4,295 bases of DNA from a virus (IMGVR_UViG_2706794688_000008); one strand, 5' to 3'. Shown: positions 460 to 2,200, counted from the stretch's first letter. The notes: generated by a model not told the origin, from the sequence alone. Numbers and translations are program-made.

Positions 460-795
460 ATGAAGTGGATTGTGATTGATACAGTTATCCAGCCATCATG
501 CGGAATATCTTTTTCAGTCATATGGAGTAAAATAAAATTAATAATCTGGTATCAATCGGATGCTTTCTTACCTCCTGAAAGTATATTTACACTGACTCAC
601 ACAGGCATCATGCTCAATAACAAAGTGCTACCTGTAACCATTTACAACGTAGTACCATTCAATAAAACATTCTGGAATTCAATCAAAAATAGCCAGGAAT
701 GCCCTACAAATACAGATAACGTATTGAATGAATGCTTTAATAACCGTTGCACTCTGCAAATATGTCCTTATGGACTAAAACAACAAAGTCCATAA
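460..795 (+). CDS. Hypothetical 111-aa protein with a hydrophobic N-terminus and a Cys-rich C-terminus, oriented against the late operon
   Basis: ATG at 460 is preceded by AAGGA (449-453) at 6-nt spacing. A 111-codon open frame is unlikely by chance in DNA of about 32-37% GC. Six of 13 Ile codons are ATA. The C-terminal region has 4 Cys (QECPTN...[16 protein letters not shown]). I recognise no family. Confidence 0.55.
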
Positions 796-830
796 GGAGT
801 TTACTCACATCTGACAAAATCAATATAAAC

Positions 831-850
831 AGCCCCTCCGGAGAGGGGCT
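831..850 (-). terminator. Hairpin terminator (8-bp GC-rich stem, 4-nt loop), better suited to the minus strand
   Basis: AGCCCCTC (831-838), cgga, GAGGGGCT (843-850) form a perfect stem. On the minus strand the hairpin is followed by GTTTATATTGATTTT. On the plus strand no T-tract follows (ggagagtggc). It sits between the convergent plus ORF (stop at 795) and the minus cassette. Confidence 0.5.
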
Positions 851-1044
851 GGAGAGTGGCGCTATGTGCCATTGCATGGTGCCGGGTGCCTCCCGGTGAA
901 TTCAGTACCAGCACCTGAATCCGCGATTATCCCATATACCTACTCGCTGATTGCCCCTCCGCACAGGGGGATTCACCATGCCAGTTTCTTTTAACAAACT
1001 CCCCGCAAACCAGACAACAGTCAACCGCCTGAATTGTGAAGTAT

Positions 1045-1620
1045 TTAAAAATTNNNNNNNNNNNNNNNNNNNNNNNNNNNNNNNNNNNNNNNNNNNNNNN
1101 NNNNNNNNNNNNNNNNNNNNNNNNNNNNNNNNNNNNNNNNNNNNNNNNNNNNNNNNNNNNNNNNNNNNNNNNNNNNNNNNNNNNNNNNNNNNNNNNNNNN
1201 NNNNNNNNNNNNNNNNNNNNNNNNNNNNNNNNNNNNNNNNNNNNNNNNNNNNNNNNNNNNNNNNNNNNNNNNNNNNNNNNNNNNNNNNNNNNNNNNNNNN
1301 NNNNNNNNNNNNNNNNNNNNNNNNNNNTCCTGAACAAGAGCAAATAATTCTGAATTAGCAACCATGAACTCATCGCAAACCCTCTGTATAGCATCACTAT
1401 TCAGAATAATAACGTCTCTTCCCGAAAGACGATCAGGAGTACAGAACAAAACTGTCAAACGGCTGAAGGCCTTTGCTCGTGCTGCATTGACTATATCAAT
1501 ACGCTGCCTAAGGATGAAACACCCCGACGCCTCATCAATATTCACTCTACCCACACCATATGAATGATAAATATTTAATGCTGAAAAAACCATTAGACCG
1601 TATAACAAACACTCAATCAA
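1045..1620 (-). CDS. Hypothetical cargo protein (ORF2 of the cassette); the 3' end is uncertain because it lies in or beyond the mask
   Basis: Ninety-seven codons are visible without a stop (1620..1328) in AT-rich DNA: MIECLLYGLMVFSALNIYHSYGVGRVNIDEASGCFILRQRIDIVNAARAKAFSRLTVLFCTPDRLSGRDVIILNSDAIQRVCDEFMVANSELFALVQ. The start is either TTG at 1620, overlapping the upstream stop, or ATG at 1593. The end at 1045 assumes the frame stays open through 274 masked nt. Confidence 0.5.
   Translation of the reverse strand: MIECLLYGLMVFSALNIYHSYGVGRVNIDEASGCFILRQRIDIVNAARAKAFSRLTVLFCTPDRLSGRDVIILNSDAIQRVCDEFMVANSELFALVQXXXXXXXXXXXXXXXXXXXXXXXXXXXXXXXXXXXXXXXXXXXXXXXXXXXXXXXXXXXXXXXXXXXXXXXXXXXXXXXXXXXXXXXXXXXXNF
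1054..1327. other. N-run (274 nt) of masked or unsequenced bases
   Basis: Contiguous n characters. Any reading frame across this run is unknowable. Confidence 1.
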
Positions 1621-1950
1621 TACTTAACAGAACTTTTATTTTTGACAAACATAAAATATTTTCAACAATATCCTGAGCCAGGNNNNNNNNNNNNNNNNNN
1701 NNNNNNNNNNNNNNNNNNNNNNNNNNNNNNNNNNNNNNNNNNNNNNNNNNNNNNNNNNNNNNNNNNNNNNNNNNNNNNNNNNNNNNNNNNNNNNNNNNNN
1801 NNNNNNNNNNNNNNNNNNNNNNNNNNNNNNNNNNNNNNNNNNNNNNNNNNNNNNNNNNNNNNNNNNNNNNNNNNNNNNNNNNNNNNNNNNNNNNNNNNNN
1901 NNNNNNNNNNNNNNNNNNNNNNNNNNNNNNNNNNNNNNNNNNNNNNNNNN
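1613..1950 (-). CDS. Hypothetical small cargo protein (ORF1 of the cassette), almost entirely masked
   Basis: Only the last 22 codons are visible (LAQDIVENILCLSKIKVLLSID, TGA at 1615..1613). The stop overlaps the TTG of ORF2 within TTGATTGA. The start must lie downstream of the tRNA, which ends near 1951, so the protein is at most about 111 aa. The ORF-track start at 1999 is a TTG inside the tRNA. Confidence 0.3.
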
Positions 1951-1983
1951 NNNNNNNNNNNNNNNNNNNNNNNNNNNNNNNNN
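1683..1983. other. N-run (301 nt) of masked or unsequenced bases
   Basis: Contiguous n characters. Confidence 1.
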
Positions 1984-2027
1984 ATTGCTTAGAAGGCAAT
2001 TGCTCTGTCCGGCTGAGCTAACAACGC
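1951..2027 (-). tRNA. argO: tRNA-Arg (anticodon UCU); the 3' part is hidden in the N-run
   Basis: The minus strand reads GCGTTGT TA GCTC AGCCGGACA GAGC A ATTGC CTTCTAA GCAAT and then enters the mask. The acceptor 5' strand, D arm and a perfect anticodon stem with a CT-TCT-AA loop are visible (44 nt). The 3' end near 1951 is extrapolated from a 77-nt length. The gene name comes from the ileZ-argN-argO order in phage 933W. Confidence 0.8.
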
Positions 2028-2040
2028 ATGATGCAGATAA

Positions 2041-2117
2041 TGGACCGCCATCGGGGACTTGAACCCCGCGCAGCCAGCTTCGAAGGCTGGCGCTCTTTCC
2101 TGATGAGCTAATGGCGG
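2041..2117 (-). tRNA. argN: tRNA-Arg (anticodon UCG)
   Basis: The minus strand reads CCGCCAT TA GCTC ATCAGGAAA GAGC G CCAGC CTTCGAA GCTGG CTGCG CGGGG TTCAAGT CCCCG ATGGCGG T CCA. All four stems pair perfectly, the length is 77 nt and CCA is encoded. The C1-G72 pair is unusual. Confidence 0.85.
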
Positions 2118-2124
2118 TATGTGA

Positions 2125-2200
2125 TGGTGGCCCTTGCTGGATTTGAACCAGCGACCTGGCGATTATGAGTCGCTCGCTCTCACCACTGAGCTAAAGGGCC
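2125..2200 (-). tRNA. ileZ: tRNA-Ile2 type (anticodon CAU, expected to be lysidine-modified to read AUA)
   Basis: The minus strand reads GGCCCTT TA GCTC AGTGGTGA GAGC G AGCGA CTCATAA TCGCC AGGTC GCTGG TTCAAAT CCAGC AAGGGCC A CCA (76 nt). It is nearly identical in layout and sequence to E. coli ileX as I remember it. There is a single 27:43 mismatch. Confidence 0.9.

Follow-up and report, generated by a model that had tools for sequence, protein, structure and literature searches.

Are the transfer RNA (tRNA) genes of a prophage kept for the genes that lie beside them, or do they serve the translation of the phage at large? The question is raised by a 4,295-nucleotide stretch of viral DNA (IMGVR_UViG_2706794688_000008; hereafter the window, meaning the whole stretch analysed), in which three closely packed tRNA genes, ileZ, argN, and argO, are found near two small genes rich in adenine and thymine (AT-rich), namely, a conserved small protein gene termed open reading frame 2 (ORF2) and a gene for an IraM-like anti-adaptor. 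An initial annotation, made from the sequence of the window, proposed that the trio matches the rare-codon demand of these adjacent cargo genes. Our analysis leads to a broader reading: it is fairly probable that the trio constitutes a conserved backbone tRNA module which adjoins a preferred insertion site of accessory genes (morons) and is not tuned to the two cargo genes. The codon match is real but generic, and the earlier interpretation is thus partly supported, though not in its specificity.

All three tRNA genes lie on the minus strand. The first, ileZ (2125-2200, anticodon CAU), is called by ARAGORN, which labels it Met, and scores 72.5 bits against the Rfam tRNA model, while PGAP annotates its homologue as tRNA-Ile. 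It is identical to ileY of Escherichia coli K-12 at 70 of 76 positions, shares the acceptor stem and the anticodon loop of that gene, and has an A.C pair at 27-43 where K-12 ileY has G.U. Given this ileY-type body and the PGAP call, ileZ is assigned as tRNA-Ile2 and predicted to read AUA after lysidine modification. The second, argN (2041-2117; ARAGORN; Rfam, 58 bits), is a tRNA-Arg(UCG) whose expected codons are CGA and CGG; K-12 is not known to have a tRNA with a UCG anticodon. The third, argO, is a tRNA-Arg(UCU) and a reader of AGA and AGG placed at 1951-2027, of which only 1984-2027 is visible, because a run of masking Ns (1683-1983) covers its 3' part and makes the lower coordinate nominal. 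The anticodon loop, CTTCTAA, falls within the visible 5' half and is shared with K-12 argU; overall the two genes are identical at 57 of 77 positions and their stems differ throughout. The host genes ileX/ileY and argU are kindred rare-codon tRNAs, to which the phage copies are additional, prophage-borne genes.

Two further masks cover 1054-1327 and 3091-3348. The hidden parts were read from an unmasked 8-kb IMG/VR contig (L039) that is 99.97% identical to the window over all visible segments. In L039, the stretches that correspond to the masks at 1054-1327, 1683-1983, and 3091-3348 measure 250, 81, and 253 nucleotides, respectively; as the masks are not length-true, window coordinates inside or across them are nominal. 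There, argO is complete at 2254-2330 (77 nucleotides; ARAGORN and Rfam), and all three tRNAs are called by ARAGORN, with spacers of 7 and 13 nucleotides and with the agreement of Rfam. The trio described in the initial annotation is therefore recovered, two of its genes by ARAGORN and Rfam on the window itself and all three on L039, as are its two spacers and the gap of 40 nucleotides that separates the stop codon of the upstream methyltransferase gene from the first tRNA, which starts at 2200. The CCA ends are encoded in the tRNAs, and at the sequence level their covariance-model scores are good.

The trio is the known ileZ-argN-argO cluster of Shiga toxin (Stx)-converting and related lambdoid E. 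coli phages. In the annotation of one Stx2 phage (AP012536.1), a 65-amino acid ORF, a methylase, ileZ, argN, and argO are followed by stx2A and stx2B, and over the 290-nucleotide module the window differs from this phage at no position of ileZ, four of argN, and one of argO, the tRNAs being 95-100% identical. The likeness extends to the three anticodons, their order, their place after Q, the 65-amino acid ORF, and the methyltransferase, and their location on the late strand. The difference lies in the slot after the trio, which holds stxAB in AP012536.1, and here holds ORF2 and a DUF3927 gene followed by the antisense iraM-like gene. Phage 933W is another carrier of the cluster, and the trio was reportedly proposed by Plunkett and colleagues in 1999 and by Hayashi and colleagues in 2001 to decode rare codons of adjacent AT-rich stx or other acquired cargo. 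The tRNA genes, their position, and the rare-codon-decoder idea for AT-rich neighbors are thus already established for Stx phages. An Ile-Arg-Arg trio beside stx has been described, together with decay of argN in relatives and, in some records, a pseudo-tRNA in the place of ileZ (PMC13641118).

The cluster is also widespread. Of 5,426 complete E. coli genomes, about 3,000 contain sequence of the cluster, and a query that combined ORF2 with the tRNA region matched 3,061 of these genomes at 7,590 places, up to 13 in one genome, mostly through the tRNA part and with a few matches to ORF2 only. Its members are not equally preserved. Across contexts whose flanks are 87-95% identical, ileZ and argO are nearly invariant (0-1 mismatch). 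In many related prophages argN is degenerate, a decayed sequence being visible in one of them (L001, 4715-4814), and in 13 of the 15 ORF2-linked clusters of a spread sample argN is without annotation, only a tRNA-Ile and one tRNA-Arg being listed. The intact trio together with ORF2, as seen in the window, is a minority form. One apparent case of ORF2 without tRNAs, phage mEp460_ev081 (L002, LR597641.1), was rejected, as its tRNAs are found by ARAGORN and are merely unannotated; that record holds a tRNA-Arg(TCT) and a tRNA-Ile(CAT) at 4404-4656.

The codon counts behind the initial annotation were exactly reproduced. The 97 visible codons of ORF2 include eight for Arg (CGT 3, CGA 1, AGA 2, AGG 2) and nine for Ile (ATT 6, ATC 1, ATA 2), and the 111-amino acid ORF at 460-795, which is the IraM-like gene, has 13 Ile codons (ATA 6, ATC 4, ATT 3). 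Unmentioned at the time was that the sole Arg codon of the latter is CGT, so that it contains no AGA, AGG, or CGA at all. Compared with a sample of 66 host genes, the share of ATA in the 111-amino acid ORF (6/13 vs. 78/917, p = 5e-4) and that of rare Arg codons in ORF2 (5/8 vs. 115/900, p = 0.0015) are raised; the share of ATA in ORF2 (2/9) is not significantly so (p = 0.18). The cognate codons are, as had been stated, rare in the host (ATA 5.5, AGA 2.4, AGG 1.3, and CGA 4.5 per 1000). The proposed match between codons and tRNAs consequently stands as an enrichment over the host, but the IraM-like gene makes use of only one of the three tRNAs.

Does such an enrichment single out the cargo? A search of genome_contigs for an exact 50-nucleotide match to the window gave no hit, the complete E. 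coli genome closest to it is 96% identical, and L039, with its 8 kb, is too short for statistics over a whole prophage. These were obtained from the related, PGAP-annotated Eco889 prophage (L055), which carries the intact trio, ORF2, the DUF3927 gene, and the same IraM-like gene, and were compared with host genes of the same strain; cargo here denotes the IraM-like gene, ORF2, and DUF3927, and density the sum of ATA, AGA, AGG, and CGA per 1000 codons. The cargo reaches 63 per 1000, compared to 26 in the 52 other prophage genes (p = 0.0016), 17 in the 17 late structural genes (p = 1e-5), and 13.6 in the host sample, and ORF2 ranks second among the 55 prophage genes. In Eco889, then, the cargo is indeed richer in these codons than the backbone, as the initial annotation would have it. 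These figures are the natural starting point for a reading in which the trio is matched to its adjacent cargo and kept for raising the translation of ORF2 and the IraM-like gene, or elsewhere of stx, after induction. The same reading may appeal to stx2A, which occupies the corresponding slot in Stx phages and has 78 such codons per 1000 with ATA at 15 of its 20 Ile codons, and to the position of ORF2, which comes right after the tRNAs on the late strand.

We nevertheless judge a cargo-specific role to be unlikely. Nine other AT-rich genes of the Eco889 prophage, with a guanine plus cytosine (GC) content below 46% and including int, cI, dicB, and DUF7167, have 47 cognate codons per 1000, from which the cargo does not differ (p = 0.28), so that the excess over the backbone holds but an excess over genes of like composition does not. 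Nor is there an excess over what base composition predicts: a composition-only model expects 5.4 ATA codons in the IraM-like gene, where 6 are observed, and in the Eco889 copy of ORF2 2.8 ATA and 6.0 rare Arg codons, where 3 and 7 are observed. Backbone and host genes have only about half or a third of the rare codons expected in this way, and over the 55 prophage genes the density drops with rising GC content (r = -0.42, p = 0.001). The cargo is thus rich in cognate codons because it is AT-rich and of foreign origin, with no avoidance of rare codons. The chromosomal iraM of K-12, a strain that is not known to carry the phage trio, has the same bias, with ATA at 8 of 18 Ile codons and 34% GC. 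Furthermore, the IraM-like gene runs against the direction of the late operon and is, as noted, devoid of AGA, AGG, and CGA, and stx2B, the partner of stx2A, contains none of the four codons (0 per 1000).

The distribution of the trio gives a more mixed picture. Among 36 viral-contig instances of the same trio variant, which were chosen by an exact 50-nucleotide match and are not an unbiased sample, 12 are followed by ORF2 and iraM, and 24 are without adjacent AT-rich cargo; where the gene downstream of the latter can be read, it belongs to the GC-rich, nanS-p-like backbone and has 12-17 rare codons per 1000. Conversely, where ORF2 is present, the linkage is tight: 1,144 of the 1,185 complete E. 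coli genomes that have ORF2 carry it next to the trio, a result that speaks for a specific relation. However, these copies are 95-100% identical at the DNA level, and shared descent of one block is therefore the simpler explanation of the linkage; argN, moreover, is missing from most ORF2-linked clusters.

Why, then, does the cargo adjoin the tRNAs so consistently? The answer appears to lie in the architecture of the region. The window probably represents the head of the late operon in an E. coli prophage that is lambdoid and resembles Stx phages but lacks the toxin. Read along the minus strand, with falling coordinates, it holds in order Q, tR', the 65-amino acid ORF, the DNA methyltransferase, ileZ-argN-argO, slot 1, STnc100, slot 2, and truncated nanS-p. 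The landmark in this arrangement is a small RNA of the STnc100 family (821-1010, minus strand; Rfam RF02076, 132 bits against a gathering score of 47) with a terminator at 830-851. It follows argO directly where cargo is absent, stx2B in the Stx2 phage, and ORF2 and DUF3927 in the window, and it bounds the cargo in every context examined (the window, L007, L024, L057, and L064). With STnc100 as a fixed point, the stretch from argO to STnc100 emerges as one insertion slot for accessory genes, and that from STnc100 to nanS-p is a second, here occupied by the iraM-like gene beside what is left of nanS-p. Each slot is thus situated a short way behind the Q-dependent late promoter. The cargo adjoins the tRNAs because accessory genes are preferentially inserted just after them: what the tRNAs have in common with the AT-rich cargo is a location, not a design.

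Variation around the landmark was seen in two other contigs. In L057, two copies of STnc100 surround a TolA/AraC/IS3/ORF2-like block, an arrangement that hints at recombination between STnc100 copies, and in L024 a match to AsxR adjoins STnc100.

If the trio is a backbone module, its customers should be sought throughout the phage, and this is where most of the cognate codons are found: the cargo accounts for 17 of the 270 in the Eco889 prophage (6%), and the other 253 lie outside it. Prophage and host frequencies per 1000 codons are 8.5 and 5.5 for ATA, 6.6 and 2.4 for AGA, 6.2 and 1.3 for AGG, 5.7 and 4.5 for CGA, and 15.2 and 4.2 for CGG, with phage-to-host ratios, relative to the host sample, that are lowest for CGA (1.3), reach 3.6 for CGG, and are highest for AGG (4.9). 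Similar values in the same direction were obtained from 159 long ORFs on 52 trio-bearing viral contigs. Lambdoid phage genes overall use these codons at about 1.3 to 5 times the host frequency, and the trio, as a set of predicted decoders for AUA, AGA/AGG, and CGA/CGG, would serve the whole phage as well as AT-rich genes anywhere in the cell. In absolute terms, the codon that most exceeds its host frequency is CGG, which stands at 18.6 per 1000 in the structural genes. Given this excess, the main customers of argN would, if it reads CGG, be the GC-rich structural genes and not the AT-rich cargo.

That phage tRNAs decode codons which the phage overuses is a general principle (PMC4032129; PMC7946995; PMC3636060), known as codon compensation from the work of Bailly-Bechet et al. 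(2007, as cited in PMC7946995), and other lambdoid phages also have tRNA genes downstream of Q (PMC3636060). The present trio resembles such codon-compensating tRNAs in that its cognate codons are commoner in phage than in host genes and in its location downstream of Q. It differs from them in that only three tRNAs are involved, that lambda, a close relative, shows equal codon usage in spite of having no tRNA genes, and that no signal of co-adaptation is seen. Any translational benefit of the trio would be generic, phage-wide, and probably modest.

As to how the tRNAs are made, position fits the late-transcript origin put forward in the initial annotation: the trio shares the strand of the late genes, is preceded by Q and two terminator-like sites, and would probably be cut out of the Q-antiterminated late transcript by RNase P and 3' processing. 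Alternatively, it may be transcribed from a small promoter of its own, 9 nucleotides upstream of ileZ.

Several considerations weigh against the backbone-module reading, or at least temper it. Lambda (L065) manages without tRNA genes at 9.6 ATA, 10.1 AGA, 5.1 AGG, 7.4 CGA, and 10.1 CGG per 1000, with a total of 32 per 1000 for the four rare codons, frequencies that equal or exceed those of trio-bearing phages, albeit in a single comparator; a higher demand thus does not go with carriage of the trio, whose benefit may be small. The decay of argN in many relatives speaks for weak selection on at least this gene. The whole-prophage statistics describe the related Eco889 prophage and not the source genome of the window. 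Finally, the near-constant linkage of ORF2 to the trio, together with the occurrence of a 57%-identical ORF2 homologue that is also downstream of ileZ-argN, may leave room for a specific relation between the two.

The possibility of a separate promoter gives rise to another reading, in which the trio acts in the lysogen: expressed constitutively from the repressed prophage, it would add AUA, AGR, and CGR decoding capacity and thereby lift the expression of AT-rich acquired genes across the genome, including the iraM-like gene. The candidate is a sigma-70-like element (TTGAAG, 17 nucleotides, TATTAT) at 2210-2238 on the minus strand, identified in a consensus scan of L039 (2043-2071) and ending 9 nucleotides before the 5' end of ileZ. 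Its -35/-10 geometry is kept in three upstream contexts, of which one follows the methyltransferase, one comes immediately behind tR', and one is diverged in sequence, with the variants TTGAAG, TTGCAG, TTGCGG, and TTGATT at 16-17 nucleotides from TATTAT. A role of this kind would also accord with the many genomes that hold several copies, up to the 13 matching places mentioned above, and with the finding that rare tRNAs limit the expression of acquired genes in E. coli (PMC2408971). However, the element agrees with the consensus at 9 of 12 positions, and matches of this quality occur in the region in the number expected by chance; as a single match no better than chance, it is a lead and not a finding. 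Moreover, two of the three contexts that preserve it are closely related sequences. We regard a lysogen-level role as improbable.

It is rather less probable still that the trio is a largely neutral passenger, persisting with little or no benefit through its linkage to the module of Q and the late promoter. Such a view would readily accommodate the tRNA-less lambda with its equal codon usage, the decay of argN in many lineages, and the replacement of ileZ by a pseudo-tRNA in some records (PMC13641118), but it sits poorly with ileZ and argO, which are nearly invariant amid diverging flanks and are retained in thousands of prophages.

The least tenable reading, in which the trio makes up for host tRNAs that anticodon nucleases or colicin-type toxins cleave during infection, is very unlikely, and the suggestion of the initial annotation that the trio buffers the phage against such defenses found no support: the UCG anticodon of argN has no known host counterpart and argO is unlike host argU in all its stems, but the 7-nucleotide anticodon loops of ileZ (CTCATAA, as in ileY) and argO (CTTCTAA, as in argU) are identical to those of the host, PADLOC detected no defense-related family among the small neighboring genes, and no anticodon nuclease is known to act on tRNA-Ile2. 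The concept itself is established in other phages (PMC10264068; PMC11555353), in which substitutions in the anticodon loop are the signature of nuclease-evading tRNAs (PMC10264068).

Of the two cargo genes, ORF2 merits attention in its own right. The gene (40% GC) is a full-length match to phrog_2873 (E = 3.5e-70). Its visible part spans 1328-1620 on the minus strand; the 3' end is masked and was read from L039, where ORF2 occupies 2441-2794. The encoded protein has 108-117 amino acids, and translation may begin at an ATG at 1593 or a GTG at 1545, the latter being suggested by a conserved core that begins (V/M)NIDE. Homologues extend down to 54-60% identity. PGAP omits the gene, with no annotated feature over the region in 15 sampled PGAP-annotated E. 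coli records, and a non-coding artefact was accordingly considered. This was ruled out by conservation of length, by an excess of third-position differences (47 vs. 28 and 25 at the other positions) relative to the 57%-identical homologue, and by an in-frame ratio of nonsynonymous to synonymous substitution rates (dN/dS) of 0.29. In four of the five alternative frames dN/dS is about 1, and the fifth, on the opposite strand, has 0.23 but also three stop codons. ORF2 (phrog_2873) is hence a real gene under purifying selection. As to its function, searches of Pfam, NCBIfam, PADLOC, and PDB sequences gave no match; the AlphaFold model is a two-helix hairpin with a predicted local distance difference test (pLDDT) score of 74.7, for which Foldseek returned only generic helical hairpins from the PDB, none at E <= 0.001.

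The rest of slot 1 is hidden under the mask at 1054-1327 (minus strand), which corresponds to the end of ORF2 and a 43-amino acid DUF3927/TciB-like gene in L039 (2734-2983; PF13064, E = 1.7e-27; phrog_1470). The IraM-like gene of slot 2 (460-795; 34.5% GC) is on the plus strand, opposite to the late operon, and is assigned by NCBIfam model NF007393 (162 bits against a cutoff of 121), by phrog_4407, by its PGAP name, and by an alignment with K-12 IraM. It resembles the K-12 RssB anti-adaptor gene iraM in length, GC content (34% in K-12), and ATA-rich Ile usage, and differs from it in being prophage-borne, in having 111 instead of 107 amino acids, and in a diverged C-terminal half. By model, it is a member of the IraM family, and its predicted function would be to bind RssB and stabilize RpoS.

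The remainder of the window conforms to the lambdoid late-operon start outlined above, with every feature on the minus strand. At its upstream end is a Q-type late antiterminator, whose C-terminal part is visible at 3877-4295 and whose gene exceeds the window (PF03589, E = 6.5e-32; phrog_127; "antitermination protein" in PGAP). Just downstream of Q, a tR'-like intrinsic terminator at 3777-3796, found in a terminator scan of L039 (490-509), consists of AACCCGCCGCCGAGCGGGTT followed by a T run; an isrK-like Rfam match over this region (3773-3844, minus strand) is sub-threshold (E = 0.7). A conserved 65-amino acid winged-helix-like ORF (3455-3652; phrog_331, with weak TrmB/MarR matches) sits between this terminator and a second terminator-like hairpin at 3451-3468. 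It is followed by an N6/N4 DNA methyltransferase, with its visible C-terminal part at 2241-3090, its stop codon at 2241-2243, and its start under a mask (PF01555, E = 5.8e-43; PADLOC MTase_II, E = 4.6e-163); the gene has 54% GC, and in L039 it encodes 352 amino acids (ORF 982-2040). At the downstream end, 26-214 holds a 62-amino acid N-terminal remnant of a DUF1737 (nanS-p-like) backbone gene, detected in the ORF list, whose homologue PGAP annotates as an incomplete DUF1737 pseudogene. Full-length versions of this gene (359-653 amino acids) share its start sequence and follow the trio in cargo-free contexts, which suggests that insertion of the iraM-like block truncated the copy in the window.

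Apparent ORFs of 412 and 191 amino acids that read through the masks are artefacts, and weak Rfam matches to P26, Trp_leader, isrK, Yar_3, and Plastid-ycf2, all under their gathering scores, were disregarded. In two IMG/VR contigs, tRNA clusters recur in tandem within 9-11 kb, with three sets in L049 and two in L018, and the sequences of Q and the methyltransferase are also repeated around them; these repeats reflect either real tandem duplication or assembly collapse of several prophages.

What do these findings mean for E. coli and its prophages? As by-products, they provide a map of two cargo slots bounded by argO, STnc100, and nanS-p, as well as a candidate promoter for the tRNA module, and they bring to light in ORF2 a conserved gene that appears to have escaped annotation in over 1,100 complete E. 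coli genomes. Should a cargo-specific boost be true after all, the trio would be a lever on how pathogenic E. coli expresses genes for virulence or stress, among them stx and iraM. And should the tRNAs be expressed in the lysogen, multi-lysogenic E. coli would have a reprogrammed tRNA pool in which AT-rich acquired genes are translated more; in that improbable event, the iraM-like gene, and with it RpoS stability, would be among the beneficiaries, as would the unannotated ORF2.

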